This document shows positions 4,620 through 55,206 of a stretch of DNA of 55,679 nt, in pieces. Below the pieces are notes generated by a model. That model worked only from the letters and a program-made list of their open reading frames with translations, was not told the origin of the DNA and searched no databases. The stretch lies in the NCBI RefSeq assembly GCF_004010195.1, contig NC_057743.1, forward strand, positions 13,974,422 through 14,030,100. Reading direction: 5' to 3'. How positions within the stretch are numbered: position 1 is the stretch's first letter; each line of letters opens with the position of its first letter. Position numbers and translations under genes: made by a program. The DNA is from Chiloscyllium plagiosum. Lineage: Eukaryota.

Positions 4620-5110
4620 CACAATTGTACACAGCAAGCTCCCACAACCAACAAAGTGGTAATGGTGAGAGTTTTGTTATAAGTCACATTGGCTGAGGGA
4701 TACGTATTGGCGAGGACACCCAGGAGAACAGTAGGACTCCTCTTGAAACACAGGGTAAAAACAATGACTGCAGATGCTGGAAACCAGATTTTGGATTAGT
4801 GGTGCTGGAAGAGCGCAGCAGTTCAGGCAGCATCCGAGGAGCAGCAAAATCGACGTTTCGGTCAAAAGCCCTTCATCAGGAATCTTGTTGAGAGAGGAGG
4901 AAAACTTCTTCAGTGATGTGATCTTTTAAATTCTCCTCCAAGGCGGACAAAGACTTCAGTTTAGCCACTCAGCTGAAAGGTGTTTCCTCCAACAATGCAG
5001 CACTCTGTTTCTACTGCCTTGGAGCATTAATCTGAATTAGGTGTTCAAATCTACAGAGAGGGACTTAAACCCACTGTCTCAGGGGTACAACTGTTACCAA
5101 ATGAGCTAAC
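4620..5110 (-). mobile_element. DeuSINE (SacSINE1-like) remnant interrupted by a Penelope-type end
   Basis: Reverse-complement Deu-domain-like text (cagcaagctcccaca ... ggacacccaggagaac ... tgcagcactc ... gggacttaaaccca). Related copies at about 25375-25825 and 28380-28790. Confidence 0.55.
4755..4886 (-). mobile_element. Short Penelope-like terminal fragment with hammerhead motif
   Basis: Minus strand reads agattc CTGATGA AGGGC TTTT GACC GAAA CGTC gatttt, followed by the family tail ...ccagcatctgcagtc. Confidence 0.75.
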
Positions 5111-5178
5111 GTTGGAACTGCTGATGAAAGGTTCCCGGACAATATTAACACCTGGAGGGAACGAAATGTAAGTGTTAC

Positions 5179-5368
5179 CTGTTATAGCCTGAAACAGGTC
5201 CGCATTGTATTCCATATAACTGTAACCGTCAAAGTTGTATGGACCCTCACAGAGAGCACGACACTCCATGTCCGCCTTGAAATATTCCCCTAAAGCATTT
5301 TCCAAAAACTCAATTGCTGGCTCAAACTGCTCATCTGAGTAATATCGGACTCCCGTACGGAAAGCTTC
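5179..5368 (-). CDS. P3H1: P3H1 coding exon 3
   Basis: ttttcag|EAFRTGVRYYSDEQFEPAIEFLENALGEYFKADMECRALCEGPYNFDGYSYMEYNADLFQAIT|gtaaca; 190 nt, phase 0-1. Confidence 0.97.
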
Positions 5369-5569
5369 CTGAAAAAAAACAATACAATAAAACTGGGATC
5401 AACAGAATATCAATAGAAGCTAAAGCACGCACAATATACACCCGCCTTTGAGTTTCTGTACATAAGAGCGATCTCTGGCTGTGCAGTACATTGCGGGCAT
5501 AGAGTTCAAAGCACCAATTTTGAAAGTGAGAATGCCAGTTGTAATGTTGGATCAGTAGCAAGTCTTTAC

Positions 5570-5722
5570 CATGTGGGGCTTGGCTTCCAAGTCCCTGAAG
5601 TCGGAATCTTTCACGCCAGCCATCATCCTGTAATACTCCAAATTCTGCCTCATCTCCATGTGTTCAGGGTTCACTACATAGAAGGTGTAAGCTGCAGCCA
5701 CTGCCTTATCCAATTTCTTAAT
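5570..5722 (-). CDS. P3H1: P3H1 coding exon 2
   Basis: ttacag|IKKLDKAVAAAYTFYVVNPEHMEMRQNLEYYRMMAGVKDSDFRDLEAKPHM|gtaaag; 153 nt, phase 0-0. Confidence 0.97.
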
Positions 5723-5904
5723 CTGTAACACAAAACGCATTTTACACACCATCATCAGGGCATCACAGAAAAGAGTATGCAGCAAGTCATAAAGGGAGAG
5801 GTTTTTCAGCGAAAGGCAATCTGATAAATATTTTTCAATGTTTGATTCACAGTCAGAAATGTTCTGCTGTGAACTCACTGCCCGGTTTACTGAGCTCAGA
5901 AATC

Positions 5905-6445
5905 AAGCACTGATGCCATGGTAATCCAGACTAATGTTCTGGGGACATGGGTTAGAATCCCACTATAACTGATGGTGAAATTTGAAGTCAATTTTTAAAA
6001 ATTTGTATTGAAAAGACAGTTAGCAATCAATATTGTAAAAACTCATCAGATTCACTAATGTCCTTTTCGGGAAGGAAATCTGCCATCCTTACCTGGTCTG
6101 GCCCACATGTGACTACAGACCCACAGCAATGTAAGCTGATTCAGTTGCTGTCTGAGTATTTAGGGTTGGCAATAAATGCTGAGAAAAATTTAAAAAGATC
6201 ATGGGGGAATCTTTTTTACACAGAGAGTGGTTCGTGCATGGAATGAACGGTCAGAGAAAGTGGTGGATGCAAGTACAATGTTTAACAGACATTTGGATAA
6301 GTACATGACTAGAAAAGGTTTGAAGGTATATGGGCCAAGCGCAGGCAGGTCGGCCTAGTTTAGTTTGTGACCATGGTTGGTGTCGACCAGTTCGACCGAA
6401 GATTCTGTTTTCATGCAGTATGACTCTTATGATTCAATGACTCTA
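5905..6445 (+). mobile_element. SINE-like repeat (about 5905-6180) followed by a CR1 3' end (about 6180-6445)
   Basis: ttcactaatgtccttt..ggaaggaaatctgccatccttacctggtctgg recurs at about 13390-13640 (+), 19490-19830 (-) and 29555-29862 (-); CR1 3' UTR follows. Confidence 0.65.
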
Positions 6446-10379: not shown

Positions 10380-10820
10380 CTTGAAATATGCCATTTGCAG
10401 GTAATTGTAGGGGTTCCTCTTCTGGAACTCAAATAGCATCTCCTCGGAGATCTGATGCATGGAGTAAGGCCCCAGCTTCTCTTCCTCACACTGCTTCAGG
10501 CAGTCGGCCTTCTTCAGCACCGTGTTGAAGAAGTTAGTGTCGAAGAAGAAGTTCTGCTCGCTGCTGGAGATGGCAAACCTCGTGTTGTTGTTGCAGAGGG
10601 TCCAGCAATGGACCTTAATCCATCGCAGTTTTACTTGGTTCTGCAGGGCCCTCTCCATGTTGATGATGACCCCTTGCCAGTCATTGCGGTAGTAGGCCTC
10701 CACTGCAGCGCTGAATAGGCGGTCGTATGGTTCCAGTGGTGCCCAGCCTTGCTCCTGTTCTTGGGCCCAGCTCCCGGCAGCCAGGAGGAGGGAGATGGAC
10801 CAAGAGAGCCAGAGGGCCAT
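10380..10820 (-). CDS. P3H1: Prolyl 3-hydroxylase 1, coding exon 1 (signal peptide and two CXXXC motifs)
   Basis: ATG at 10820 gives MALWLSWSISLLLAAGSWAQ (signal peptide) ... WQGVIINMERAL ... CWTLC ... CLKQC ... EFQKRNPYNYLQMAYFK, matching the vertebrate P3H1 N-terminus. Donor AAG|GTAATG; 441 nt, phase 0. Confidence 0.96.
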
Positions 10821-11009
10821 GTCTGGAGAGACAGAGACAGCAAGGGGAGAGGGAGAGAGACAGAAAGAGGGAGAGAGGGAGAGACACAGGCACCGCAGCC
10901 TGGCGAGGAACACAGTTTCAGATGAAATTTGAACTGGAGAAAGAGCTTCCTCCCTGAAGGTGGAGCCTAGGCCTGTCTCCTCCCTGTAGCCACTCACAAC
11001 TGCTCACAA

Positions 11010-11070
11010 ACTCTTTAAACTCAGAATGCTCATGTCATACGGTCAGCATTACGCTCGGGGGGGGCGGGAT
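11010..11070 (-). promoter_or_regulatory. Putative P3H1 core promoter (GC box and TATA-like element)
   Basis: GGGGCGGG at about 11061-11068 and TTTAAA at about 11014-11019, roughly 200-250 nt upstream of the P3H1 ATG. Position and motif only. Confidence 0.35.
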
Positions 11071-13389: not shown

Positions 13390-15700
13390 GGGGAGCTGAT
13401 GGCGTAGTGATATTGTTGCTGGACTAAAAGTTCAGAGATACATATAACACTCAAGGGACACGGATTCAAATCCACCTTTTTTAAAAAAGTGGACTTTGAT
13501 GTCGAATGATGACCATGGAACCACTGCTATGAAAACTCTGATCTAGTTAATGAATTCCCTTTAAGGAAGGTAAATTCCATCCTTACCTAGTCAGAGGCAC
13601 AGCAAGCCCTTAACACAAAACTGCCCTCTGAAACAGCTGAGCAAGCCATTCCATTTTATCAAACTTTTTAACAGCCTCAAAATAGAAAAGAAAACTGAGC
13701 AGACTGCCTGGCATTGACTTAGGCACTGGAAACAACAACAGCAAACACTGCTCTCTCGACCCTGCAAAGTCCTCCTTACAGGGGGAATGAGTCCCTCTGG
13801 GGCTCATTCCAAAATGGAGAGAGCTATCTCACAGACTGGTCAAACAACAGCCTGAGATAGTCACCCTCCTGCAATCATACTTCACAGGTAATATTCCATC
13901 CCCGGCTTTGTAATTTCCCAGCCACAGACAGAGAGCAGCAGAGGTAGCCCCACTGGGGCTACAAAGTGAGGAGAGAGTCGGTCTGGGAGTCTTCAATGCT
14001 GCCTCTGAACCGCATGGAGGCTCATCACACCAGGCCAAAGAGGGACAAGGAGACCTCCTGTTGATTACCATGTACAGCTACAAGGAAGCACAGAATTGAA
14101 AAAAGTGCAAGATAATCCCTGGGTGGGTGCTGAGAGTGAATGCCCTCAACATTATGCCAGCATTTGGCAAAAGATTGCATCAGGGAGCACGAGCAAAGCT
14201 AGTGCCAGTGGAATGAGGGGAGAATTCTCCACCAGTCAGAGTCATACCTGGCAGGTAGGAAGATGATTGTGGTTGTTGGAGGTCAGTCATCTCAGCTCCA
14301 GGACGTCTCTGTAGGAGTTCCTCAGGATAGTGTCCTCGGCCCAACCATCTTCAGCTGCCTCAACCATGATCTTCCCTCCATCGTAATGTCAGAGGTGGTC
14401 ATTTTCACTAATGACTGCACAAGGTTCACCACCGACTGCAACTCCTTAGATACTGAAGCAGTCAATGCTCAAATGCAGAAAGACCCAGACAATATCCAGG
14501 TTTGCGCTGAAAAGTGCGAGTGATATCCCTATCACGCAAATGCCAGGCAATGGCTATCGCCAACAAGAAACAATCTAATCATCACCTGTTGACATTCAGT
14601 GACATTATATTGGTTTAGATTCCCTACAGCATGGAAACAGGCCCTTCGGCCCAACAAGTCTACACCGACCCTTTGAAGAGTAACCCACCCAGACCTATTC
14701 TCCTACATTTACCCCTGACTAATACACTTAACACTATGGTCAATTTAGCATGACCAGTTCACCTGACCTGCACATCTTTGGACTGTGGGAGAAAACCGGA
14801 GCACCCGGGGGGAACACACGCAGACATGGGGAGAATGTGCAAGTTCCACACAGATAGTCGCTCAAAGTGGAAATCAAACCTGGGTCCCTGGCTCTGTGAG
14901 GCAGCAGTGCTAACCACTGAGCCACCATCCTGAAGAAGGGCTTATACCCGAAATGTCGATTCTCCTGCTCCTTTGATGCTGCCTGACCTGCTGCGCTTTT
15001 CCAGCAAAACATTTTTCAGCTCTGATCTCCAGCATCTGCAGTCCTCACTTTCTTCTACTGAGCCACCATTACCAACACTGAATCCCACCCTTGTCCCCGT
15101 CTACATCCTGGGGGTTAGCATTGACCAGAATATGAACTGCATCAGCCATATGAATACTCTGGCTTCAAGAACTGGTCAAAAGCTGGGATTCCTGCAATGA
15201 GTAACTCACCTCCTGACACCCCAGAGTCCATTCATCATCGACAAGGCACAAGTCAGGAATACTGTCCAGTTGCCTGGATGGGTGCAGCCCCAACAACACT
15301 CGAGATGCTTGACACCATCTCAATGCAGCCCATTTGATTTATACCACATCTACAAGCAACCAGTCCCTCCACTGCTGATGCTCAGTAGCAGCAGAGTGTA
15401 CTATCTACAAAGTGCACTGCAGAAATTCGTCAAGGCTCCTCAGCTAATCCACAACCTTTACCATCTCGAAGGTCAAGCGACAGTAGATACATGGGAACAC
15501 CATCACCCGCAAGCTCCTGTCTGAGCCACTCACCACCCTGACTTGGAAATATATCGCAGTCCCATCACCGTCACCGGGTCAAAGTCCTGGAACTCCCTCC
15601 CTAACCAAATAGACTCCAGTGATTCAAGAGGGCCGCTCACCACTACCTTCTCTCCAGGCAACGTGGGATGGGTAATAAATGCTAGCCCAGCCAATGGCCT
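13390..15700 (+). mobile_element. Degenerate second-family CR1-group LINE with nested SINE (about 14610-14928, minus) and hammerhead fragment (14929-15056)
   Basis: ORF 14263..14523 VGVPQDSVLGPTIFSCLNHDLPSI...IFTNDC is a decayed RT (GVPQGSVLGP, FADD); GSKSWNSLP near the 3' end. Confidence 0.75.
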
Positions 15701-17061: not shown

Positions 17062-19348
17062 CACACAGACAGCGCCAACACTCCCCGTGTTCACACACAG
17101 ACCATTAACACTCCCTGTGTTCACACACAGACCACTAACACTCCCTGTGTTCACACACACATGATGTGGAGGAGACTGGGGGTGGGCAACGTTAAAAATT
17201 ACACAACACCAGGTTATAGTCCAACAGGTTTACTTGGAAGAACTAACTTTCAGAGTACTGTTTCCTTCATTAGGTGGTAGTTTTATGACCAGGATCATAA
17301 GACAAGAGAATTTAAAGCAAAACATTAGTGTCATGCAACTGAAGTGATATATTGAACAAACCTAGATTGCTGTTAAGTCTTTCATCTTTTAGAATTGCAG
17401 GTTTTGGTTCATTCATATGTAAATCCCAGAACTTCTTTTAAGTCACATTCTTGAGATAACTTAAGGTTTTATTAAAAAAAAAGTGACATCTCAGCTCAGA
17501 AAATGCATTAAAGGTGTGAGGTTAGAGTCTGTCTGTATCCCAATCTTGAGTCAGACCGGTTCTATTCCAAGATGGAATTTTAAAAATATTACATGGATTG
17601 ACTGCCTGCAGGTTGTGCATTTTTGAGCAAAATAGAATGTACCTGCAAATATAGTTCTGCAAATGTAAATTTACTCCATAGACTTATATCTGTGTGCACG
17701 TACATGAGAGAGTGTGTGAGTGTGAGTGCGTGTGAGAGAGTGTGTTTGCATGTGTGTGTGTTTGGTAAAGTGTGTGCATGCTTGGCATGAGATAGGTTCT
17801 TTGTGAGTATGTGTATGTGACAGAGTGTATAGTGTAGTGTGACATGAACCCAAGGTCCCGGGTGAGACCATCCCCACGTGTACAGAACTTGGCTGTCAGC
17901 CTCTGCTCAACCACTCTGCGTTGCTGAGCATCTCAAAGTCTGCCTTGGAGGATGGTCATCCGAAGATCCGATGCCGAATGTCCCTGACCGCTGAAATGTT
18001 CCCCGACTGGGAGGGAACACTCCTGTCTGCCACAGAGTGGCTGAGCAGAGGCTGATAGCCAAGTTTGGTACCTATGAGGATGGCCTCAACTGGGACTTTG
18101 GATTCATGTCACATGACAGGTGATCCCACTGCACTACACACACACAATCTCACAGGCTTGTTCTCCATCACACTCACACACACACTTTACCAAGCTTGCA
18201 CACATCCATACACACAATCTGTCATATGCACTGATACTCATACGCACATACTCACTCTCTGTCTTTCTCTGTCTCTCTCTCGTGCACGCGCACACACGTA
18301 TAAGTCTATGGGGTGAATTTGTATTTGCAGAGCTATATTTGCAGACACATTCTATTTTGCTCAAAAATGCACAACCTGCAGGCAGTCAATCCATGTAATA
18401 TTTTGTAAGTCCCACTTTGAAAATAGAACCAGTCTGACTCAAGATTGGGATACAGATAGACTCTAGCCTCACACCTTTAATGCATTGTCTGAGCTGCAAT
18501 ACCACCTTTTCTATTTGAAACCTTAAGTTATCTCGAGAATGTGAGTTAAAAGAAGTTCTGGGATTTACATATGAATGAATCAAAACCTACAACCCATTCT
18601 AAAAGATGAAAGACTTAACAGCAATCTAGGTTTGTTCAATATATCATTTCAGTTGCGTGACACTAATGTTTTGCTATGAATTCTTATGGTCCTGCTCCAC
18701 AACTACCTGATGAAGGAGCAGCACTCTGAAAGCTAGTGCTTTCAAATAACCCTGTCAGACTATGGTGTTGTGATTTTTAACCACACACACACAACACTAA
18801 CACTCCCCGTGTTCGCTCGTACAGATAGCGTTAACACTCCCCATGTTCACACACACACACCGCTAACAGTCCCCATGTTCACACACAGACAGCGCTAACA
18901 GTCCCCGTGTTCACACACACAGTGCTAACACTCACACAGTGCTAACACTCCGTGTGCTCACACACACAGACAGCGCTAACACTCCCCATGTTCACACACA
19001 GGCATTGCTAACAGTCCGTGTTCACACATACAGACATCGCTAACAGTCCATGTTCACACACAGACATCGCTAACAGTCACCGTGCTCTAACACTCCCTGT
19101 ATTCACACACACCCAGCACTAATGCTCCCCATGTTCACACACAGACATTGCTAACACTTCCCATGTTCACACACACACAGCACTAACACTCCCTGTGTTC
19201 ACACACACAGTGTGAACATTCCCTATGTTCACACACACAGACAGAGCTAACGCTCCCCATGTTAGCGCTAACACTCCTTGTGTTCACACACAGTGTTAAC
19301 ACTCCCCGTGTTCACACACACAGACAGCACTAACACTCCCCGTGTTCA
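17062..19348 (+). repeat. Minisatellite (about 26-30 bp unit, cagcgctaacactccccgtgttcacacaca), split by an insertion at about 17162-18781
   Basis: About 3 units at 17062-17160 and about 20 diverged units at 18782-19348. Confidence 0.9.
17162..18781. mobile_element. Penelope-like element, two 3' ends in inverted orientation
   Basis: Arms 17191-17918 and 18033-18781 are reverse complements. The minus-strand centre reads SLPVGEHFSGQGHSASDLRMTILQ...RRVVEQRLTAKFCT..DGLTRD (GIY-YIG C-terminus). Hammerhead motif at 18707. Confidence 0.8.
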
Positions 19349-19973
19349 TTTTGTCCATTAAGAACTCCACACCAGTTCATTTAATGTTTAGTTTCTCACT
19401 TCCTGTGTCAGCTGCGATGTTGAAATGGCCCCTAGGGCTCTGACTGCCTTTTGCCCACAATTTCCATTCTTCAAGACTTTTCCATCTTCTTTTGTGGGAT
19501 ATGAGCATCACTGGCAAGGTCAGCATTTGTTGTCTATCCCTAATTGTCTGTAAGGAAGTGATATTGAGCCACCTTCCTGAACCTCTGGAGTTTGTTCTGT
19601 TGGTACAGTTGCGTTCAGAGGGCAGTTAAGAGTCAACAACAAAAACTTCCAGCTCGGCGAACAGAACCACAACAACGAGCACCCGAGCTACAAATTTTCG
19701 CACAAACTGTCAACTACACTGCTGTGGGTGTAGGCCATGTGTAGGCCAGATTAGGGAAGGGCACCAGATTTCCTTCCCTCAAGTACATGAGTGAACCGTG
19801 CGGGATTTTATGCAATAGGTTAATGAAGACTGTTCCTGAGACTAGTTTTCAATTCCATCCCAATCCATGTGACCAGAAAAAAGGCTAATGATGTTCAAAT
19901 ATGGGTTGGGGTCAAAGGTCAGAGGTGACACCCAGCTGGTTTTGGATTTCCCGCCCTGTGGCTTTGGGGCTAA

Positions 19974-24559: not shown

Positions 24560-24788
24560 CTGTATTGAGAAAACAACAAGTGCTGAAGATCACAGTGGGT
24601 CACACAGCATCCATGGAGAGAGAGTAAGTTAACGTTTCAAGTCCAAACAACTTTTCATCAGAGCTCTGATGAACGGTCACCTCGACTCAAAACATTAGCT
24701 TGCTCCCTCTCCATGGATGCTGTCTAACATACTGTGATCTCCAGCATTTGTTCTTTTCAGTACAGATTCCAGCATCTGCAGTAATTTG
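24560..24788. mobile_element. Fold-back pair of Penelope-type ends joined at the hammerhead
   Basis: Centre TTCATCAGAG|CTCTGATGAA; flanks are diverged reverse complements for about 100 bp each side. Confidence 0.7.
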
Positions 24789-25235: not shown

Positions 25236-26514
25236 TTTTCACAACCAAGGTTGGTGAAACTCTCAAAGGTCTTGAACTGAAGACAAAAAATGCTGGAAAT
25301 CACAGTGGGTCAGGCAGCATCCATGGAGAGGGAACAAGCTAAAGTCTTGAGTCTAGATTGCTCTTCATCACGAAAGTCTTTACAGCCAATGAGGAACTTC
25401 TGATGCTGTAACACTATATCAGGCTTGCACAGCAAGCTCCCACAGATGTTAAGATGTCAACGACTAAGTAACTTTTTTTCTGTTGTTGATTGAGGGGCAA
25501 CTAATCATCAGGTACGTCACAAAACAACCAAATCATTACACAGGAGGCCATTCAGTCCATCATGTTTGTTCCCGTACTTGGGGAAACTCCCCTGCTCTTT
25601 ATCAAAACAGTGGCATGCAATCTTTTACAACCGCCCCCCCCCGCCGCCCCGCCGTCCCCCCAGCCCCGAACAAGCAGATCGAGTGTCAGTTTAGTATCTT
25701 AGCTAAATTTCAGCCCTTTCAACAATGCAGCCCTCCCTCAGTATCACACAGGAGGCTTGAATGGGGACCTGAACCTGGGAATTTTATGATTCAGAGGAGA
25801 GGGTGCTACCATCCGAACCGAGCGTATGAAAAGGTTGGTGGTTATGGATCAAAACAAAGGCAAACAGGACAGTATGCTGCGATGGCTAGTCGTATGTCAG
25901 GGACTTGTGGAATATAATATGTAGGTGTGAGGGAGAGTCAGTGAAGTATGCCTCCGGTGTACTACCTCTTATCACCAGCAGGAGGTTAAAAGTGATAGTG
26001 AGAGGTGTGGCTGGCTGTATTAAGGCCCAGGCCTCTGCCCTTTCCCTCCATAACTATAGTTTTTTTTCAAACTAGTTGGGCTGTTACATTTTAGAAGAAT
26101 GTCCCAGGTTTGTAGTGTAATTATACATTGCTTGTTATCTGAGAATTTAGAGGCGTTTCCTTTAATACCAGTAAGAATGTTATCGAGGGTTACAATAAAA
26201 ACAGTGAGATCATCACTAAAGATCCCCTATTAGAAGTTCCTAAAAAACACTATTTTAGCTCTGAGCACTAATTTTAACGGACAGTGCCCATGTACAATAC
26301 AAATTAATATACTTCACACATCTAGATTTCTGTAACACTGAATGATTCTAGAATGAATGAGGAAAAAGAAATACTTGCACATTCGACTTTTCGTTTAGCA
26401 GTTTAACTGAAAGCTGCACAAAATGTTCAGCTTCACAGGCATGTACAATGGCTGAAACCTGAAGAGTACTGATACACAGAGGGATCTGGCTGTGCAGGTC
26501 CACAGATCATTGAA

Positions 26515-27480: not shown

Positions 27481-29954
27481 CCTGTGCACATATAAATATT
27501 GAGGTCACATGCCCATCTTTTATTTACAAATCAGAAATGATTCTTTACTCAGCTTCCAAGTTAGGCTAATAATGAAAGTGTTGGATATGGGAGGGTGAGG
27601 TGCAGTGTGGGTTAGCTCAGTTTGTTAAATGGTTGGAGTGCAGTGCAGACGTACCCCGCTGGTGAAGTTGCTACCCTCAAACTATACATCACCAACTACT
27701 TTGACCTAATGGATAGAAATGCCTTTGGAATTTTATGGACAATGTGTTGGATTAACACAAGGGAAGAAGGTGACAAAATGACTGATGGGAATTACTTAAA
27801 ATGTGCGGAGAGGAAGGAGCTGAATCAAAGGCTTTATGCAAATTATTTAAAAATATAATTGTGTTCCTCTTTGTCATTTGATTCTGGATTCCTGAGGGCC
27901 CTAAGCTCAGAGCATTAGGGTTACCCTGGTGGGGAAAGGGTTTGGAGTTGGTAGCTGAGGAACAATGTGGGAGATGGGGTGGACCGGGGTAGCCCTGAGA
28001 TTTTGAATGGATCAGAAAGTGTGAAACCTGAGGCTGCACAGCTCCATATTAGGAAAGAGAAAACAAATATAATGCACAATATAACTTCATAAATAAAACC
28101 TGAAATGCAACCTACAGCAATGGTTCTGGGAAATGCATCTAGGAAAAGCAACACTGCCACCTAGCATTTAAAATACAAGGACACACAGAACTGAACATGA
28201 TATCCAGGCTGTGTTGAAGTGTGACAATCCAGGAAGTGGACTCTAGGCTTTTTAACAGAGATAAGGTATGACTGTGTTACAGATTGTACCGCTGAATTCA
28301 ATATCCTGTTCTTTCAAACCAACTAACCGGTAGGCCTTTTATGACTGCTGATATGATTTATTTGAAGAAGGGATGAGACCTGCATTTATATAGCACCTTC
28401 CACAATCTCTCGGTATCAAATTGCTTCAGAACAAACCTCCATTCCTGTCACTTTTCTAACGTGCAGCTAATTTGCATGCAGCAAACTCCTACGAATTCCC
28501 ATGTAATTAAAGAACCAGATCACTTGTTTTTGGTGATATTGATTGCAGGTTGAGTACCAGCTAGGAAACCGATGGGAACTCACCTGCTCCTCTGTGAAAG
28601 AATACTGGGGGGGGGGGGGGGGTTGTTTATGTGTCCCAAGCTGGGGCCTTGGGTTTGATATCAGCACCTCTCCATCATAGTGGCGATCAGTCAATGTGAC
28701 ACAAGTCTAGATTTTCTGCTTCAGTTTCTGGAGTGTGTTTTAAAACTTTCTGACTCAGAGGCGAGCACAAACCCTTCTGAGCTACCGTTGCCACCTGATG
28801 ATTGGACATGAAAAATAACACTACCCGACTTCTGGTTTCCGGTGGTTTGTTGCAAGCCGCGGTGCATTTCCTTTCAAGTCTTGAACGGGTGTATGTCTGC
28901 CTTTTCAGCCAGGCGCTGGACTCAAACGGCTTCTTAAGCAGAAGTGAAACTTCCTTTTCTCTCTCCACAGTCATGCAGAGCAGGTCTAATCACGCAGAGA
29001 AAGGCAAGAACATAACCTTCACTTATCGTCTGTTCAGAACATCCCAGAGCGTGTCACATACAACGATGTAGGCAAATATATCATATTCAATTTGTACACA
29101 GAGCCAGCATTTATATAGTGTCCTTCATGACTTTATCAATTTATACCCATTTAAATATGTAGTTGCTACTGTCATGTAGGACTGGTTATGTAGAATATAG
29201 AACTTCATTGTGTTTAGATTGAAAGGCACGTGCTCTAGGACACTGGGACAGCCTGTACTGTATTCCCTTAATCTTTAGCAATCACCGGAAAGGGCAGAGG
29301 GAGCCTCGATTTAGCATCTCCCTGAACTCTTCAAAACTGCACAGAAGGGTCAGTCGAGGTCACGCTACTGTAGAGGGTGCCAGTGAGGTTTGAACTCTCA
29401 ATGTTCTAACTAACAAGGAAGTGTTTAGGACACACAATATTTGGTAATGACCCCCACTTTGTTTTGAGCTAAAGTCCATAAAAGTATCTCACAGGCAATC
29501 ACATGGTTACCAGAGAGTTTGGGATGTTGAAGCCCTCTGTTCCACCTCTTTATCATTGTGGGGGTCACTGGCTAGGCCAGCATGTATTGCTCAGAGGGCA
29601 GTTAAGAGTCAACCACATTGCTGTGGGTTCAGAGTCACATGTAGGCCAGCAGTTTCCTTTCCTAAAGAACATTAGTGAACCAGATCGGTTCTTCCAACAA
29701 TCAGTAAAAATTTCTCAGTCATCATTCGAATCTTAATTCCAGATTTTTATTGAATTCAAATTCCTCCATGTGCTGGTGGTGGAATTTGAACCTGGGTTCA
29801 CCAGAATATTACCTGGGTCTCTGGATTAGTAGCTAAGTGATAAACCACTAGGCTATCACCTCCCTAGTACATTGATCATTTGATCATCTTCCTAAGTGCC
29901 TGCCATGCTGTTTCCTCAATGCAGTAGTCTTGGCAATTCGGAGCTTCATCCGGA

Positions 29955-30071
29955 GGTTCACTGATGACGTTACCTAGTAATGGTGACGAAACGTCTGAAA
30001 ATAAACCTTCTAGCTCAGCGAGCAAACCTACATCCAGAACCTCAACCTGAGCTACAAATCTTCTCAAAACA
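29955..30071 (+). mobile_element. Penelope-type terminal fragment with an intact hammerhead core
   Basis: ttca CTGATGA c GTTACC tagtaat GGTGAC GAAA CGTC tgaa. Tail (cctgagctacaaatcttctc) is shared with about 19640-19710. Confidence 0.75.
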
Positions 30072-30279: not shown

Positions 30280-30780
30280 GAACTGAGTATACTGAGCCTC
30301 TGTTCCCTAGAATTTAGAAGACTGAGAGGTGATCCCGTGGGAACGTATGAAGTTTTTTAAGGGACTTGACAGTTAAGGTGCCGAGAGAGAATTTCCCATT
30401 GGTGTGTCTAGAAGTAGGAGTCACAGTCTCAGAAATGTAATGTCCTCACACACAAAGGTCTATGAATCATTGGAATTCACCAAGCCTGCAGAGCTCAGTT
30501 GCTGAGTATACTCAAGATGTGCAGGTGCCGGTGTTGGAGTAGGGTGGACGAAGTTAAAAATCACACAACACCAGGTTATAGTCCAACAGGTTTATTTGGA
30601 AGTGTAAGCTTTCGCAGCGCTGCTCCTTCGTCAAGTATATTCAAGACAAAGATTGTTAGGTATTTGGATACTTACAGATATGGGGATAGTGCAGGGACGT
30701 GAAGCTGAGGTAGATCAGCCATGACTGTAGTGAATGACAGTGGAAGCTGATTGAGGTATTCCTGCTCCTACTTCCTCTCC
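30280..30780 (+). mobile_element. Old CR1 3' fragment with nested Penelope-type end (about 30515-30634, minus)
   Basis: ctagaatttagaagactgagaggtgat; acacaacaccaggttatagtccaacagg motif shared with 17200. Confidence 0.7.
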
Positions 30781-32479
30781 TCAAACTTTATTTGAGGAGA
30801 GCCATGTGTGAATATTGTTATATCTGCAAATCCATTGTGAAGAATATCCTTGACCTGTAAGCACTTGCATGATTGGCAGCATAATTAAAATAGTTTGAAT
30901 GCTCAACAACAGAAGATTTGAATCTCTGTTGTTCTTCCTAGCTTCCAACCAACAGACTGAAATGGCAACTCCCATTGTGGTATACTTTCTGCTTATGAAG
31001 GTACTCTGGCTCCACCCAGGGTTTGTTTTCTGGCTCACAGACTGTTATACATTAATCACTGGATGAGGTAGCAACCATTGATGTTCCTCTGATTAAAATG
31101 GCACGTAATCTTGCTGTGACCTGTTCGTGCCTAAAGCATTTACTAACAATGAATTGTCCTGCTTTCAGTCAACAGGGATATCCAGCCTCCTCTTCAAACT
31201 TATATTTGGGGTTTGATCAATGACTGGAAAGGCTATAATTTCACATTCATCACAAAATCCCTGAAAAGGCCTTTCCTTAATGCTGTGTTAGCTGATACAG
31301 CTTAGTGTTTTCTAAACCATTTCACAGAGTGGAGCATGTCCAGGTGGGTTTATGGCGTTGTACACAGGTCAGACCAGGGCAGTACATCAGCTTTCCATCC
31401 CTAAAAACTTAGTTGGATTTTTATCAGCACATTTGACAGCATTAGGCTATTGATTCCACCTTTTTTTAATCTTTGTAACTACCATGGGAAATCAACTCAA
31501 GGTCTCTAGGGGAGCAGACTCCCCCTATGAGGTGGACAAAATCATTAGTCACATGACACCAGATTATAATCCAACAGGTTTATTTGAAATCACAAGCTTT
31601 CAGAGCATTGCTCCTTCATCATCTGATTTCAGGTCAACCCGTTGGACTATAACCTGGTGTTGTGTGACTTCTGACTTTGTCCAGCCCAGTCCAACACCAG
31701 CACCTCCACATTATGGCTTGCCCTATGGGGAGAGAGGGAAACAGGCTACTGAGTTGGATAATCAGCTAAGATCATATTGAATGGGGGAGCAGGCTCAGAG
31801 GGCCAAATGGCTTACTCCTGCTCCTATTCTCTGTTTCTATGGATCATTGGACCAGCTAGTCACTGGATTACTAACCCAGTACACTGCACCACTGTGTGGT
31901 TTCAAACTCAGAACTACCTCTTCTCAATACAACTTCCTGTTCCAATTAAAATGAGCTTTTCAGATGCAAACTGAATTCCCTTTTTAAAATGAGATTGAGG
32001 CTGCATCAACGATAACATCAAATTCCTCCCAGCCTCTCCCTGATCTTATCTCTTGATGTTCCTTCTGTCCTGCTTTTCAATTCTGTGTGAAGGCGCTGAA
32101 GGTTTCTGTTCTGTCGCTGTTATGTACTTTGGGTGTTTTCCAATCTGCTTTTATTTTCAGTTGCATGCGGTCGCAAAAGTGGAAAAAGAAGAAAAACTTT
32201 TCAAAAACTCCCCGGTGATGAACCCGCCCTCGCTGGAGCAGGTTTACAAACTGCGGTGGCTGCATGTTGAACCAGCTGCTTTACCCCCTCCCCATGTGTG
32301 GGCCTGCTCAATTGGCAGATGACCCAAGTAAATCCTGTTGCTCAGACACGCATTTTCTGTCGGCTGGTTATATTGTTTATCCTCTGCTCTGCATCCTCCC
32401 GAGTCCCCATGCCCAGTTGTAAACCCTACATTATACTTTGCTCCCAGTCTCTCAACTCAGTGCAGAAATTAGACCCAAA

Positions 32480-33010
32480 CAAAAACTGAAATTGATGGAA
32501 AAGTTCTGGCCGCATCAGTGGCGAGAAATCAGAGTTAACGTTCCGGGTCCAGAGACCGTTCCTCAGAACTGAGGATAACTAGGAAAATGTTGAGTATATG
32601 CAGAAGGTAGGGTGGGGTGAGGAGTAAACGATAGGTGGTGATAGAGCACAAAGAGAGAGAAAAACAGTTGGACAAAGGAGTGGATAATAATCTGGCAAGG
32701 AGGGTGAATAGCTAGTAATGGGGACAGTTAGTGGCTAACAGTGGGTTGTGTATAATAGCAGACTATGCGATAACAAGGGCTGTTGCGTGGGGATTGAGGT
32801 AAGGACATGGGAGAGCTCAAGACCTAAAGTTGTTGAGTTCAATTTTGAGTCCAGAGGACTGCAGGATCCCCAAGTGTAAAATGAGGTGCTGTTCTTCCAA
32901 TTTGCACTGAGCTTCGCTGGAGCACTGCAGAAAGCCTGAGACGGAGATATTGGCCAGGGAACAGGATGGGGTGTTAAACTGGCAGGCAACTGGAAGCTCA
33001 GAGTCTTTTC
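32480..33010 (-). mobile_element. Penelope-like 3' fragment (GIY-YIG C-terminus, 3' UTR, degenerate hammerhead)
   Basis: Minus frame GFLQCSSEAQCKLEEQHLILHLGILQSSGLKIELNNFRS; agtt CTGAGGA...GGAA CGTT aact at about 32533-32570. Confidence 0.7.
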
Positions 33011-33438
33011 TGTGGGCAGAAAATAGACCATTGACTCAGAGTGGGGAGCTGCCCTCAGTATTTCTGAAATACCAAATCCATGTTTACAGTAAACCACAAT
33101 AGGTGGATGACAAGGGAATGAATTGGGTACTTGCAGAATTGTTTTGTTTTACAAGCTCTGAAATAACCTTAAAATTACATCATTCTGGGTGATATTGAGT
33201 AGTGTATGCTCATACAAAGGGTTTGAACAATGTGGAACTCAATGACCCCAAAGGGCTGTCGCAATCAGTTCAGAATTTCAAGCCTGTGTTCGGCAAAAGT
33301 ATTATCAGTTATGGAACTAAAGCAGGTGGGTGGAGTTAGATCACAAATCAACCATGATCCGGTTGAATGGCAGTACAGGTTGGAGGGGCTGAATGGCCTG
33401 TTCATGTGTGTACGATTACTTGCTAATGGAATGGGTGA

Positions 33439-39066: not shown

Positions 39067-39305
39067 CTTTGAGTTTTGAAAACTGACGATCAAAGAGAGA
39101 AGTAAACGTTTGGCCTATTACAGAATGGGTGTGACATCATAGACAACAGCTCAACATAGCTACAATGTGGTAGTTTTACCTAAGGGCCAGTGGTTGATAC
39201 AAGGTAAAATAAATTGGAGTAGTTTCATACTAATCCTAATGGGCATTGGTGCAAACTCTGCCCCAATTCCACACGGAATTTTCAGTCAGGGTTTCTACAG
39301 GGATT

Positions 39306-39929
39306 AAAAATGTGTTGCTGGAAAAGCGCAGCAAGTCAGGTAGCATCAAAGGAACAGGTGAATTGACATCTCGGGCATAAGCCCTTCTTCAGGAATGAGG
39401 AGGGTGTGCCAAGCAGGCTAAGATAAAAGGTAGGGAGGAGGGACTTGGGGGAGGGGTGCTGGGAATACGTTAGGTGGAAGGAGGTTAAGGTGAAGGTGAT
39501 AGGCCGGAGAGGTCGGGAAGAAGATTGCAGGTCAAGAAGGTGGTGCTGAGTTTGAGGGTTGGGACTGAAAAAAGTTGAGGGGGGAGGGGAAATGAGAAAG
39601 CTGGAGAAATTTGCATTTATCCCTTGTGATTGGAGGGTTCCTAGGCGGAAGATGAGGCACTCTTCCTCCAGGCGTCGTGTTGCCATGGTCTGGCAATGGA
39701 GGAGGCCAAGGACCTGCATGACCTTGGCAGAGTGGAAGGGGGAGTTAAAGTGTTCAGCCACGGGGCGGTTGGGTTGGTTGGTGCGGGTGTCCCAGAGGTG
39801 CTGTGTGTACTGCATCCGCTGCGGCCTCCTATACATTGGGGAGACAGGCCGCCTACGTGCGGAACGTTTCAGAGAACACCTCTGGTGTTTAAGCTCTGAT
39901 CTCCAGCATCTGCAGTCCTCACATTCTCC
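39306..39929. mobile_element. Rearranged Penelope-like insertion with 14-bp target-site duplication
   Basis: GIY-YIG pieces VYCIRCGLLYIGETGRLRAERFREHL (plus) and HLWDTRTNQPNRPVAEHFNS...RRLEEECLIFRLGTLQSQGIN (minus). TTTCTACAGGGATT at 39292-39305 and 39930-39943. Confidence 0.85.
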
Positions 39930-48986: not shown

Positions 48987-51357
48987 GGCACTGGATTACT
49001 GCAAAATAGAATACATTGCAAGTTGAGCGTGTACTTGTGCCACAAACAAACCGAAATTGCTGGAAAAAAACTCAGCAGGTCTTGCTGCATCTGGGGCCAG
49101 AAAGCAAAGTTAATGTTTCGGGTCCAGTCACCTTTCTTCAGAACGACTTCAGAACTACTTTTGTGCTCCTTCTTCCCTCCCACCAAGTACTCACTTTCAA
49201 CTGAAGCAGGGCTGCAAAGCTAACCATCATCACTCTGGGCTCTGATCTTTCAGGGGCACTGAGATTAACAGCAGCTCAGCAAAGGCAATTAGTAAGTGTT
49301 ACAGTCATCGTGCATTTCCCCCAGCATTGTCGAATAATACTAACTCCCCAAACATGTTCCAATAAGAGAATCACACTCAATCAGGGCTGTTCATATTTGA
49401 TCATTGTGAGCCCCATGTTCTGTGTTCTTCAGTTATTTTATTGGGGGAGGGGGTAGGGCTGGAGGGCAGGTGAGAGTACATAAAGTGGAAAAGCCTCATC
49501 CACTATGGTGGTGCATACATTTCAAGGTGCTCATACCAACATACCTTGGTGCTTTCATTTAGGATTTATTTACAGAAGGGGCAACAGCACTGAAGTAACC
49601 CCTCATCACAGGGGTGCAATAATTCAAATAAGACTAAGCAGTAGATCAGAACAGTTAGGGACTAGATTGCTTGGACTCAGAAACCAGATTTCTTGAAGTT
49701 CGAGGGATTACATGGATCAAGATGGCAGCGTGAATACCATGCCGTGGCTAAAACCTAGGCCAAGGAACGTGCTACTGGAGATAGTTCACCATTGTTCAGT
49801 AGATGAGTGGTAGTTGAGAAATAAATTGTATCACACTGGGTAAACATTTAAGCTCACAGAGGGGCTTCAATCAGGCTGATGTGCCTGGTCAGTTCCCCTC
49901 CAACAAGGAGCCTCTGTGGACCAGTTTGTTGCTGAAATTGTTCACTGTCCAGTTCCAAACGAGAAGCACTGAGGGTTCTCTCTAACTGAGTAGAACAAAT
50001 GGATCTTTTGAGAATGTCATGTCCAAGCTGGTTTATGTTCAGCGCTGCACAGAATAGAGCTGCTGAGTCAGCTGGCTTCAAAGAATCCCACCCATAAGGT
50101 TAACCCTTTTCCTCTCCCTTTCAGTTGAATGAACTGCCTGCACATTTTGTCCTTCTGAGAACTTATCCAAAATGTTTAACATTCACCTCCAAATGAATTT
50201 TTGTATTTTAACAATTCCTTGTATGCGAAATGCTTTAAAAAATGTTTGAGACTTCGAGGCATTAAACTGGCAAAGAATTTTTTTTTTAATATTCATGCGA
50301 CTGCTACAAGTAAAGGAACAAAACAAGCACCATCTGGTATTTAGGTGACAGAAGACTATAAATTGAGTTTAATCTCTTGGCTTATTGACCTACACCAAAC
50401 AAATGGTCTTGACAGACACCCTGTCCCTGCTGTTTCACATACATCTCAAGTTTCTTTTCAGAACTTATTCACAATTGAGCTATCAGCACGGATAAGTCAA
50501 TTCCAAAACTCTAAGTTCCCAACTTGAAACAGGCAAACAAAAACTAAAACACAGGCGCAGACAGTAGCAAGTGGCCTGATGTTCAGTGACAAGACTATAG
50601 GGTTTGGGGTCCTTGTGACTGGATGCACATTCTTACATGGAAAATGTTAGCAAACCCTTGTACGTAAAAATGAGGGGATCAGTTCCTGCTATCAACAACT
50701 TGAATAGAAAAAAGGAAATAGCATTTACTTAGCAGCTTTAACACCACAAGCACATTACAAAGATTGACATCAAGCTACATGTAGGGCAAGATAGAAGCCA
50801 GGCTAGTCCAACTGGTTTATTGAAATCACAAGCTATCGGAGTGCTGCCTCTTTGTTACTGCGCCTGACTAAGGGTCAGCGCTCTGAAAGCTTGTGATTTC
50901 AAATGCATCTGTTCGACTATAACCTGGCATCAAATGACTTCTGACCTTGTCTACCCCAGTCCAACACCACATCATTTTAGGGCTGGAAATGAAAAGCTTT
51001 AAAGAATGCCTTAAAAGATGAAAGGGAAACAGAGACTCATCTGGTACAAATCCCATGTATGTTCAAAGTGCAGGTAAGGAAGAAAGATGGATAACAAATT
51101 CTACAACCTGAGGACATCCTGAAGTACTTGACAATGATACTTTTAAAGTGTATTCACTGTTGCAATGTAGGAAATTGGAGTTACTGATGACCAGCGTGCA
51201 GTTGCATCAGAGGAAGGAAAATGACTGTATATTTGTACAAATGTAGGCAAACTGCGAGAGCACAAAATCAGCACATGATTGGTTGGGGAGTGGGACTGGA
51301 TTTGTAAATGAGGCTCTACATTACCATATCAACAATAACTTACAATTGTACATTGAT

Positions 51358-52224: not shown

Positions 52225-52424
52225 TCAAAAACAGCAGCAGCAACTTGCAATTATGCATCGGTTATGTACAGTCTCATTTCAAAACCTATTCCCACTCACC
52301 TACCCAATCCCGTGGCGATCTTGTGTTCCCAGAGTTTATCTGCATTTGCACAAATTTCTCCCATTCTGAACACAAAGTCCCTTTGTGCACCATTTTGGAC
52401 AAAGTAAAGGGGTAATTATGACAG

Positions 52425-52553
52425 GGAGAAAGTGAGGACTGCAGATGCTGGAGATCAGAGCTGAAAAATGTGTTGCTGGAAAAGTACAGGTCAGGCAGCA
52501 TCAAAGGAGCAAGAGAATCGACATTTCGGGCATAAACCCTTCTTCAGGAATGA
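52425..52553 (-). mobile_element. Short Penelope-type end with hammerhead motif and 7-bp TSD
   Basis: Minus ttc CTGAAGA AGGG TTTATG CCC GAAA TGTC gattc; ATGACAG at 52418-52424 and 52554-52560. Confidence 0.75.
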
Positions 52554-53189
52554 ATGACAGTATATTAAAGATGAAAGACTGCTGCAACTAGAAAAAAAAA
52601 TCAAGAATCATTAAACATGGACAACAACAGGTTTGAAGTTTTGCTATCACAGCTCAGAGAGGAAGAATAGCCACATGGACCAGCTTCTACACAGTATACT
52701 TATAATCAGAAGGCTTCAAAAACACTAAACCCATTGATTACTTTTCATGAAAATGCACCCTGTTACATGGGCAAGCATTTCAAACCAGAATACAGGGTCC
52801 AATAACAGCAATCAAATTAATGACCAATTATATTATTTTTAATCAGATGTTGACCAGGAGTCCATGCTTTATGCACTCCTTGACACAGCATAAAGTGTGG
52901 CACTGGGAAAGCACAGCACATCAGGCAGCATCTGATTTTGGACATAAGCCCTGCATCAGGAATTTATTTTTAAAAAAGTCACACTAGGTTATATTCCCAA
53001 CAGGTTCTTCTCATTAGCACACAAGCCCATCATGTAAAGCACATCCTCCCCCACCCCCAGTTTTAAAAAAACCCAGGCTGGACTGGAAACATTAACTGGT
53101 TTCTCTTTCCACAAACGCTACCAGACCTGCTGAGTTTCTCCAGCACTTGGTCATCATTTATGGGTCATACTGGGAAGCAACGAGTGTGT

Positions 53190-53460
53190 CTGCCTGGATA
53201 GGAGGCCCGGTGGGAGCAGCGGGCTGGCCTGGGTCGGGAGGGCCGAAGGAACCGGGTAGGACACCCACCACCACAATCAGGGCGACACGCTGCTGCGACC
53301 CCGGGAAAAGCCGCGACCTTCGCTCCACGAGTCACCTGATTGCAAGCACCGTCACATGACTGTAGCGGAAGGCAGTGACGTCATTGCGGGGCACGTCCCG
53401 CCGTGCTGCTTCAACGCCATCTTTGATATGGGCGGAAGCATTTACCCCTCCCCCCCCGTT
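53190..53460 (-). promoter_or_regulatory. CpG-rich AP5B1 promoter and probable non-coding exon 1 (ends at 53336)
   Basis: CpG-dense patch with CRE TGACGTCA (53376-53383), GTCACATGAC E-box (53351-53360), ETS CGGAAG (53366-53371 and about 53433-53438), YY1 CGCCATCTT (53415-53423) and a minus-strand donor CAG|GTGACT. Confidence 0.75.
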
Positions 53461-53904
53461 AAAGGCAGCTTCTTTTTCATAGAAAATTAACCTTCATCTC
53501 CAATCTCTGATCTAGTTGTTGCTCCTTCCTTCTGAGCAGCACAAGCAAAATATCTATTTATTTTCTTCTCAAACTGCTGAGAGATATTACACACTCTAGA
53601 GCAGGTGGGTCTTGAACCCAGGCTCAGAAGTAAGAACTTTACCACTGCATCACAAGAGCCTTTTCTGTTTAGTTTCTAACATTAGAGTGAGGGTGGCGAT
53701 TTTACATAAATGCTCACAGGTCCCACTTAATAGTTTTCTATAATTTAACAGGTCTATAATGATAAATTGTAATCTCTGTGAAATTTTAAATTTCCATCAC
53801 CAATTTTACAGTAAGTAAAATTCACTTTCAAATGAGTGGTAAAAGTGGTCACAACTGGTGTATTCATAAGCCTTTCAATTTCAGAGCAGGAGGAGGCCAT
53901 CACA

Positions 53905-54365
53905 GAGTCATCGAGATGTACAGCATGGAAAAAGTCTCTTTAGTCCAACTCATCCATGCCAACCAGATATCCCAACCCAATCTAGTCCCACCTGCCAGTA
54001 CCCATCACCCTCCAAACCCTTCCTATTCATATACCCATACAGATGCATTTTAACTGTTGCAATTGTACTGGCCTTCACCACTTCCTCTGGCAGCTCATTC
54101 CATTGACATACCACCCTCTGAGTGAAAAAGCTGCCCCTTGGGTCTCTTTTATATCTTTCCCCTCTCATCCTGAACCTATGCCCTCTAGTTCTGGACTCCA
54201 CCACCCCAGGGAAAACACTTAGTCTATTTATCCTATCCATGCCCCTTATGATTTTGTAAACCTCTATAAGATCACCCCTCAGCCTCCACGCTCCAGGGAA
54301 AACAGTCCCAGCCTATTCAGCCTCTCCCTTTAGCTCAAATCCTCCAAGCCAGGCAACATCCTTTT
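53905..54365 (-). mobile_element. CR1 3' fragment
   Basis: ORF ESRTRGHRFRMRG...FFTQRVVCQWNELPEEVV. Confidence 0.88.
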
Positions 54366-54701
54366 GATGTTTTATGCTATGTTGTATCACCCCTGGATTT
54401 TGAAATCATGTTTGTACATTAAGGTCTAGGGCATTTATATATATCAGGAAAGGAGAGTGTGGTGATTGGAACATGGTCATCCAAGTTTAGAATATCAGTC
54501 CTGATGAAGGGTCTTGGCCCAAAACGTTGACTTTTCTGTTCTTCATATGCTGTCTGACCTGCTTTTCCAGCTCCACATCTATTAACTTTGGTTTTCAGCA
54601 TCTGCAGTCCTTACTATCTCCTATAGAATATAAGTTCCCTGACTGGGGCTGTAAACCTGGTCCAATCAGGGAGCCCTGGTTGACAGACATAACCAGAATG
54701 T

Positions 54702-55206
54702 TCATCCTGGCCAAACTGGCGATTAACAGGTCCAGGCAGCGGGCCGTGGAGGGGGTCGTTAGGGCCGACTGCCTGCCCCTCTTCCGCGGTTACGTTAGAG
54801 CCCGGGTGTCCTTGGAGAAGGAGCACGCGGTGTCGACCAACACCCTGGAGTTATTCAGGGAGAGGTGGGCGCCGCAGGGAGTGGAGTGCATCATTTCTCC
54901 CTCCAACTCTATTTTGATTTAGTCCCTACCCTCCCCTTCACTGTTTTGATCACACATGTTGAAACTTTATTGCTGGAACAGCACAGCAGGTCAGGCAGCA
55001 TCCAGGGAACAGGAGATTCGACGTTTCGGGCACAGGCCCTTCTTCAGGATCACACAGCACTGCCCTCTGATGTGAAGGGCAGTGTTTGTCACTGGCCACC
55101 CGGGTGTTTTCCTATCTTCCTGGTGGTGGAATTGAATTAAAGATTAGTGCACTTTGTGTCTTTCACTGTGTCTCACACCTGCACACACACACACACACAC
55201 AAAAAA
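54702..55206 (+). mobile_element. 5'-truncated Tx1-like (L1 clade) retrotransposon 3' end inside an LTR-type repeat (about 54466-55365)
   Basis: LAKLAINRSRQRAVEGVVRADCLPLFRGYVRARVSLEKEHAVSTNTLELFRERWAPQG...* (stop at 54922) resembles the Tx1 ORF2 C-terminus. CpG-rich, so probably young; ends in (CA)n plus an A-tail. Confidence 0.7.

Follow-up and report, generated by a model that had tools for sequence, protein, structure and literature searches.

The short stubs scattered through this stretch of Chiloscyllium plagiosum DNA, 55,679 nucleotides that we call the window, are probably the decaying remains of four families of hammerhead-bearing Penelope-like elements (PLEs), with the short stubs of three of them (A, B and C) copied from the capped and uncut 5′ end of the element RNA. 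The motifs themselves are supported as minimal type I hammerheads in the terminal repeats of PLEs; since they match the published minimal PLE hammerhead, the class is already known, as was thought when they were first noticed.

All 16 motifs listed in the initial annotation are present, within a few bases of where it had placed them and on the same strands, and the window holds 8 further arms or degenerate copies absent from its list. The features are given below, entries marked "added" being outside that list.

1282..1357 (−): C-like arm lacking the hammerhead's 5′ half; added
2271..2345 (+): C-like arm lacking the hammerhead's 5′ half; added
4754..4883 (−): A3 arm, long form, reference −4..+125, starting at −4 behind an extra G
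4852-4879 (−): hammerhead of this A3 arm; core and palindrome intact, one mismatch within helix II
14928..15053 (+): long-form A1 arm; hammerhead 14930-14957 keeps its core and has lost the palindrome
17174..17905 (−): B arm, left half of a head-to-head pair; GIY-YIG C-terminal remnant 17648-17905
17244-17273 (−): hammerhead of this B arm; G5 changed
18031..18781 (+): B arm, right half of the pair with 17174..17905; GIY-YIG C-terminal remnant 18031-18339
18707-18735 (+): hammerhead of this B arm; core and palindrome intact
19637..19708 (+): D1 tail-only arm; added
24571..24661 (−): C-like arm, facing 24666+ head to head; hammerhead 24631-24661 keeps its core (H17 = U) and palindrome
24666..24782 (+): old A/C-like arm; hammerhead 24666-24696, G12 changed
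25273..25370 (−): degenerate arm with a decayed hammerhead; added
29943..30070 (+): D3 arm, reference −17..+108; hammerhead 29961-29995, helix II 6 bp, helix I 4 bp
30512..30636 (−): B arm, long form; hammerhead 30606-30634, C3 changed
31528..31715: B head-to-head pair with a 7-nt target duplication
31528-31621 (−): short arm of this pair; hammerhead 31594-31622, C3 lost
31636-31715 (+): long arm of this pair, partner of 31528-31621 (−)
32483..33026 (−): C arm; GIY-YIG remnant 32826-33026; hammerhead 32537-32566, A13 changed
39298..39929: family A insertion flanked by 12-14-nt target duplications
39582-39809 and 39365-39392 (−): GIY-YIG C-terminal part and hammerhead (A14 changed) of the short arm of this insertion
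39802-39885 and 39888-39929 (+): GIY-YIG N-terminal part and tail, the inverted parts of this insertion
49044..49144 (−): C arm; hammerhead 49112-49141 keeps its core and has lost the palindrome
50790..50968: B head-to-head pair made up of a degenerate arm, 50790-50860 (−), and its partner, 50863-50968 (+)
50864-50892 (+): hammerhead of B arm 50863-50968; G8 changed
52421..52553 (−): long-form A1 arm; hammerhead 52520-52547 keeps its core and has lost the palindrome
53078..53148 (+): C-like arm lacking the hammerhead's 5′ half; added
54495..54621 (+): old A-like arm; hammerhead 54501-54528, G12 changed
54958..55049 (−): short-form A2 arm, 99% like its subfamily; hammerhead 55020-55047 keeps its core, helix II and palindrome

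The A3 arm at 4754..4883 (−) lies 170 nt beyond an exon of the leprecan family on the same strand.

The core is complete in 8/16 sites (4879−, 14930+, 18707+, 24661−, 29961+, 49141−, 52547− and 55047−), the other 8 carrying a single core change each, and core and palindromic helix III are retained together in 5/16. The four copies originally named as keeping every core nucleotide (4879−, 18707+, 29961+ and 55047−) do so, and 24661− joins them with core and palindrome intact; the D3 copy at 29961-29995 (+) is the most complete hammerhead of the window. A descriptor search, proposed at the outset as a check, bears the motifs out: a strict descriptor (core plus helix II of at least 3 bp) finds 6 matches in the window against a mean of 0.12 and a maximum of 3 in 200 dinucleotide shuffles, and 4 of these matches are palindromic against a shuffle mean of 0.01. 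An Rfam scan of the window returned no hammerhead family up to E 10. On folding, the active-like structure lies above the minimum for 4/4 window copies, in monomer and dimer alike.

At least three sequence families had been proposed; we resolve four, A, B, C and D, with nine subfamily references. All nine subfamily majorities have the minimal type I core (C3-U4-G5-A6-N7-G8-A9, G12-A13-A14-A15.1, U16.1, H17) and one extra base between A9 and helix II, while the first helix II pair is G10.1-C11.1 in 4/6 distinct helices and G-U in 2/6. The helices change in sequence and stay paired, as the initial annotation had seen for helix II: between subfamily majorities 20/21 positions are paired in helix I (reached by 2/5040 permutations) and 23/24 in helix II (reached by 4/720), counts that come from related subfamilies and do not represent independent events. 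Pairing was counted by anchored positions because MAFFT misaligned a family D copy. Helix III is palindromic, as had been described, with C-G in 7/9 subfamilies (A, C and D) and G-C in 2/9 (B), and the flanks of B and D cannot be aligned with those of A or C.

The link to PLEs comes from what lies upstream. GIY-YIG remnants are found upstream of and co-oriented with 4/16 window copies (17273−, 18707+, 32566− and 39392−), in keeping with the first description. In families B, C and D such a remnant upstream of the motif is the only part of the ORF seen, and the GIY-YIG end of family D looks like that of the Penelope/Poseidon clade, to which the family may belong. Family A has, upstream of the motif, a reverse transcriptase (RT; PF00078), then a CX4CX2C linker (copies L122, L123, L124 and L140), then GIY-YIG; RT and the C-terminal GIY-YIG share one frame in copies L124 and L128, with the GIY-YIG read by eye, and a Pfam search of the family A frames gave no GIY-YIG match. 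A CX2-5CxxC linker before GIY-YIG is described as a Neptune/Nematis feature (PMC8557442), and judged by its linker family A would fall with Neptune or Nematis. Among 20 long candidates, in which assembly gaps and truncations interfere, none is a complete element whose ORF is joined to a 5′ repeat. Copy L128 was considered as a full-length tandem and rejected, its upstream motif being a separate insertion. An RVT_1 profile search of the genome gave no PLE lead from the top RT matches.

Genome-wide, four exact patterns give 77,862 matches, with 0 in controls. From sampling we estimate about 1 million stubs or arms, making up at least 4% of the sampled DNA, and we put the copies in which core and palindrome are both intact at about 150,000; of the hammerhead populations compared, this one may be the largest in a single genome. 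The closest published relatives are the minimal hammerheads in the terminal repeats (pLTRs) of metazoan PLEs (Cervera and De la Pena 2014, PMC4209133), described as type I, with an extra base after A9, a palindromic helix III, a short helix I and, in most families, a G-C pair at the base of helix II, and likewise occurring as several families per genome, mostly as dispersed singles with some opposite-strand pairs. They differ in scale, another descriptor having counted about 4,000 copies in coelacanth and 9,000 copies in Xenopus, and in the available text of that paper copy start positions are not discussed; a term search of one of its two supplements found no shark name, and a literature search for PLE hammerheads with shark names gave nothing pertinent. 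The original view of the motifs as relics holds, the dispersed copies being decayed stubs of PLE families: palindrome positions are changed in 66/342 cells, and CpG sites overall in 253/1348. Dispersed single copies are probably inactive. In long copies non-CpG core positions differ in 42/1711 against 356/5314 in the flanks, a lower divergence partly due to subfamily variation in the flanks, with some selection on copies possible.

The stubs have the architecture of PLE insertions, whose hallmarks (inverted truncated copy, one-sided tail and target duplication) are all present. In every family the 3′ end lies at one of two positions, separated by about 30-40 nt. Among 258 adjacent arm pairs, 187 are head to head, 22 tail to tail and 49 on the same strand; a long arm is combined with a short one in 146/164 head-to-head pairs, where 50% would be expected, and target duplications of at least 7 nt occur in 94/178 against 2/178. 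Published PLE insertions (Craig et al. 2021, PMC8557442; Arkhipova et al. 2013, PMC3846280) are described with the same head-to-head arms, inverted 5′-truncated copies, palindromic junctions, 30-40-bp tail at one end only and target duplications. The latter paper proposed self-priming on an antisense template, whereas here two primings on sense RNA are proposed and the long-short combination has been counted.

The 5′ ends, counted on arms selected by their tail, pile up in A, B and C at 0-10 nt before the core, often with an extra G. In family A (n = 117), 51 lie in −10..0, 4 in −30..−11 and 5 in +26..+30, around the predicted cut; 22/42 in B and 11/37 in C lie just before the core, and family D has no such pile-up (0/21). 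The family A peak is broad (−8..+2), and many short arms have no extra G. Hand counts on listings put a G at −9 in 65/78 truncated copies of family B, or 25/36 once cases explained by neighbouring element sequence are removed, against 16/84 one base on; in family A a G stands at −5 in 70/100, or 41/57 on a stricter count. The excess has p values from 3e-25 to 6e-6, and long copies have G at the same positions in 0/33 (B) and 2/116 (A). A G at −9 in family A (9/9) was rejected as a cap mark, being templated by a subfamily, so that a hidden subfamily could inflate the other G counts. A TATA motif precedes an initiator-like A by 32 nt in B1, 30 nt in B2 and 29 nt in C; D1 and D2 also have one although family D shows no pile-up, and canonical TATA is absent from family A.

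Starts before the core together with a non-templated G make the template look capped and uncut. A non-templated G at the 5′ end of full-length LINE-1 insertions has been read as a copy of the cap (PMC11702581), and that paper also describes twin priming with inverted arms within a 12-18-bp duplication; LINE-1 is another class of element, and the copies described here arrive at the capped end within just 90-135 nt. Titles and abstract openings in the literature show no evident mention of a cap-derived G or a start-site pile-up in PLEs. In raw RNA reads, molecule starts and ends do not pile up on a family A copy, positions that this library resolves poorly. Copy X21 has 2,496 raw reads in both orientations, 75% continuing into unlike sequence, with no start or end pile-up, and none matched copy X22; the X21 reads look like host read-through of many copies, uninformative on start site or cleavage.

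The initial annotation took the elements to be ribozyme-processed, which is unsupported for most copies: they contain a whole uncut ribozyme and start just before its core, often with a cap-like extra G. The strongest form of that view, in which element RNA is routinely cut as a dimer, possibly religated to circles, and inserted after processing, seems unlikely to us. It has in its favour the covarying helices and invariant core across families, the circle model proposed in PMC4209133, and the long copies, which cross the cut site and are compatible with circles. It also has +28, the commonest start within +23..+33 (17/100), and 2/30 U6 copies (30 of 48 matches listed) joined exactly at the +28 cut, from which we would say that hammerhead cleavage probably occurs in some transcripts. 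Yet for 10/17 of the +28 starts there is either microhomology with the partner arm or a sense duplicate, and the remaining 7 are no excess when neighbouring positions average 5.8 (p 0.36); short copies stop before the core with an extra G, neither of which a circle or a 5′-OH end predicts; and no RNA ends at the cut are seen in our raw reads or reported for the anole (PMC11167929). Cleavage leaves only a faint genomic trace, starts at the predicted cut being a small minority and partly a matter of microhomology. A T-run followed by the A1/A2 tail pattern occurs at 13 places, none with U6, and titles and abstract openings show no evident literature on U6-hammerhead chimeras.

It is more improbable again that the pile-up reflects stalling or fold-back of RT at the hammerhead, or helix-related short homologies, with no transcription start. 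Short homologies and palindromes do occur at many junctions, self-priming has been proposed for rotifer PLE junctions (PMC3846280) and starts are scattered over about 10 nt; but this leaves unexplained the G at a single position in family B and the match in TATA/initiator spacing, and family D, with the longest helix II, has no pile-up. That the short copies are a separate non-autonomous unit, retrozyme- or SINE-like with its own short RNA, we regard as very improbable. They are short and very numerous, promoter-keeping solo repeats could supply short RNAs, and animal non-LTR retrozymes, whose type I hammerheads are likewise tied to PLE terminal repeats, are reported to derive from these repeats, in a survey that sampled one cartilaginous fish, with a positive result (Li et al. 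2026, 10.64898/2026.07.22.740005). Retrozymes, however, form tandem arrays, while window copies are single or head to head: no tandem hammerhead array covers any motif within the window, the hammerhead-bearing tandem units that define a retrozyme are absent there, and same-strand neighbours make up 49/258 adjacent pairs. Subfamily sequence and both 3′ ends are moreover common to short and long copies, and stubs starting at −4/−8 have no upstream TATA.

On the capped-leader reading that we prefer, a promoter within the terminal repeat would place the transcription start 4 nt (A, C) or 8 nt (B) upstream of C3; the element protein would cleave both target strands and prime two cDNAs at two internal start sites. 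Many cDNAs would reach the cap and gain the extra G, and the two would then be joined via short homologies. Priming in the downstream repeat of a read-through transcript would account for the longer copies and for most of those in family D. The ribozyme would be maintained by selection in source elements, its cutting probably limited to protein-assisted dimers, and either to a minority of the transcripts or to a different step. We lean, on balance, towards the further proposal that the commonest PLE product is a 90-135-nt capped-leader copy made by two primings, at the two internal start sites, on both strands of one staggered cut, with the hammerhead a rarely fired decapping switch: it would form the first 30-40 nt of the mRNA, decapping would depend on protein or dimer, and occasional cuts would be recorded as U6 chimeras.

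The anole Poseidon element PAc (Frangieh et al. 2024, PMC11167929) offers the nearest parallel: two internal RT start sites define a "tail," both target strands are extended, uncut RNA is the main template, and the hammerhead is protein-assisted, with no RNA ends at the cut. For PAc this was demonstrated in vitro, whereas here there is a genomic footprint alone; the available text of that paper reports neither the 5′ ends of genomic copies nor a cap-derived G, and the PAc ORF begins at helix II, while the A1 motif has no ATG.

The class being known, the ribozymes themselves are unsurprising. The published activity of the PLE hammerhead is low, and insertion in vitro is independent of it. This genome gives in vivo counts that bear on the role of the hammerhead in the PLE cycle: most templates were apparently capped and uncut, the ribozyme would open the transcript, and the pairing of long with short arms agrees with the two RT start sites known in vitro. 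If the capped-leader proposal is true, each family has its start site, its cap and its two RT start sites mapped in vivo by copies that number in the hundreds of thousands.

All 16 hammerhead-like sites of the initial annotation are present in the window, with every core base intact in 8 of the 16 copies and both the core and the helix III palindrome in 5 of the 16. A strict descriptor matched the window 6 times, against a mean of 0.12 over 200 shuffles, and 100 dispersed genome tiles (951,432 bases) 75 times, 41 of them palindromic, against 1 match when the tiles were reversed. None of the hammerhead motifs was matched in an Rfam scan of the window. The copies fall into four Penelope-like element (PLE) families, A to D, whose exact patterns occur in the 3.56 Gb genome at 53,084, 17,018, 498 and 7,262 places, respectively, each with a reversed-pattern control of 0. 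Alignment to nine subfamily references (A1–A3, B1, B2 and so on) gave 353 arms (stub copies of the PLE terminal repeat) in tiles and window together, a sample of 1,201,046 bases. This density of about 294 per Mb, with arms making up at least 4% of the bases sampled, would correspond to roughly a million arms in the genome, provided that the tiles are typical; 20 of the 120 tiles flank the window and are richer in arms than the remainder. Extrapolated from the 41 in 951 kb, about 150,000 genome copies would retain core and palindrome.

Positions are numbered with C3 as 0, which places the predicted cut in family A after +27. The motifs of family A are located about 160 nt downstream of a frame with a reverse transcriptase domain (PF00078), a CX4CX2C linker, of a type described for Neptune and Nematis elements in PMC8557442, and, by eye, GIY-YIG motifs. 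Families B, C and D have GIY-YIG remnants upstream of the motif, and the proposal that such remnants lie upstream and co-oriented stands for 4 of the 16 window copies. Inspection of 20 long candidates turned up no intact full-length element. At about +45 in the family A tail (e.g., window 14975, plus strand), an ATG begins a stop-free frame running through the tail, which may mark where the ORF of the element begins; no copy was found in which this frame is joined to the reverse transcriptase frame.

When subfamily majorities are compared, pairing holds at 20 of 21 positions in helix I, matched by 2 of 5040 strand permutations, and at 23 of 24 in helix II, matched by 4 of 720. Helix III alternates between C-G and G-C among subfamilies, and the sequences flanking the motif in B and D cannot be aligned with their counterparts in A and C; the motif has therefore been maintained in the source elements. 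In long copies not selected by motif, palindrome positions are altered in 66 of 342 cells, a rate equal to that of all CpG sites (253/1348), and the 11 scored core bases are intact in 111 of 174 copies. Non-CpG core bases diverge less than the flanks, which also contain subfamily differences (42/1711 vs. 356/5314). We read these sequence changes as mostly neutral decay after insertion, with some selection acting on copies as a possibility.

The other features of the window are:
5051–5398, 5552–5902 and 10287–11003, minus strand, leprecan-family gene (PF23557), three exons
10034–10122, hairpin of 89 nt with near-perfect pairing, separated by about 165 nt from the first exon of the leprecan-family gene
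35606–36461, plus strand, integrase remnants (PF17921, weak rve)
44881–47541, minus strand, AP5B1 open frame of 886 residues, matching all four AP5B1 Pfam domains

The intact-core copy at 4879 (minus) is on the same strand as the leprecan-family gene, 170 nt past its third exon, and probably lies within an intron. The hairpin has an Rfam miRNA match far under the family cut-off and is possibly a MITE; the integrase remnants probably represent an old LTR retrotransposon.

Two 3′ ends, 30–40 nt apart, occur in every family and define short and long arms:
Family A, about +81 to +94 and +125
Family B, +81 to +89 and +120
Family C, +90 and +122
Family D, +73 to +78 and +107 to +114

Adjacent same-family arms at most 1.5 kb apart, pattern-chosen loci included, comprise 187 head-to-head cases, 22 tail-to-tail cases and 49 with both arms on one strand. 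One long arm is combined with one short arm in 146 of 164 classified pairs (65 of 73 from tiles and window alone), and a target duplication of at least 7 nt is found at 94 of 178 pairs vs. 2 of 178 controls; the insertion at window 39298–39929 has this layout. PLE insertions with inverted copies and a tail on one side only are already known (PMC8557442, PMC3846280). The long-plus-short rule agrees with the anole PLE, for which PMC11167929 describes extension of both target strands in vitro from two internal RNA sites. One family B head-to-head pair in the window is bordered on its two outer sides by the same CA-rich minisatellite with a 30–32-nt unit (17062–17161 and 18782–19346), and the pair may have inserted into it.

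The 5′ ends were counted on tail-chosen arms from tiles and window, with identity of at least 85% and none at an edge. Among 117 family A arms, 51 start at −10 to 0, 4 at −30 to −11, 14 beyond −60 and 5 at +26 to +30; starts at −10 to 0 make up 22/42 in B, 11/37 in C and 0/21 in D. In B1, B2 and C, an A resembling an initiator, at −8 or −4, has a TATA motif 29–32 nt upstream; family A has such an A at −4 but lacks a canonical TATA. Drosophila PLE promoters sit within the terminal repeat (PMC2377424). Hand counts of the first 100 listed matches show a G preceding family B copies that start at −8 in 65 of 78 among the matches listed (22 of 100 rows, mutated long copies, being excluded). Once rows explained by adjacent element sequence are removed, the figure is 25 of 36; one base on, the control gives 16 of 84 among those listed (16 rows dropped). 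For family A, 70 of the 100 matches listed have a G immediately before −4; with the same filter applied, 41 of 57 do, vs. 42% expected. P values for these G counts run from 3e-25 to 6e-6. Long copies have C or T at this position. A G at −9 in family A was rejected as a cap mark, being templated. In LINE-1 insertions, an extra G marks a capped template (PMC11702581).

The copies had been annotated as relics of a ribozyme-processed system. Minimal PLE hammerheads described so far show no activity as monomers and weak activity as dimers (PMC4209133), that of the anole is protein-dependent and dispensable for insertion (PMC11167929), and only 1 of 9 Xenopus dimers cleaved (2026 preprint 10.64898/2026.07.22.740005). 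The active form is not favoured in the folds predicted for four window copies. Arms that start at about +23 to +34 are captured by a pattern occurring at 4,213 places, with +28 the most frequent start (17 of 100 among the matches listed). Of these 17, 10 have microhomology, owing in part to helix I, which renders the partner arm complementary at that point; the remaining 7 listed show no excess over neighbouring positions. In several of the listed rows, family A copies have the entire hammerhead deleted between two flanking copies of a five-base word. Of 30 U6 copies checked, 2 continue into family A3 precisely from +28, the base that immediately follows the predicted cut:
G000:C10:28341692, U6–A3 join at +28 (locus L310)
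G000:C7:109202494, U6–A3 join at +28 (locus L327)

Two more U6 copies (L322, L326) seem, by eye, to be joined within the GIY-YIG frame; a tRNA-like SINE head follows many others. The +28 joins, two cases only, are compatible with occasional cleavage and ligation of the 5′-OH end. Raw RNA reads, uninformative here, gave no pile-up of ends, and the genomic traces of cleavage are faint.

The hammerhead observation was right, and its class already known (PMC4209133); one cartilaginous fish had previously been positive for PLEs and hammerhead repeats, according to the 2026 preprint. A literature search, whose reach stopped short of Luense et al. (2017), Repbase and Dfam, found no paper stating how numerous the copies are, that their start sites pile up behind a cap-like G, or the counted long-plus-short rule, and these three go beyond the papers compared. 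For most copies, ribozyme processing does not hold up; on the simplest reading, the RNA would begin just upstream of the ribozyme and be copied through to its cap while uncut.
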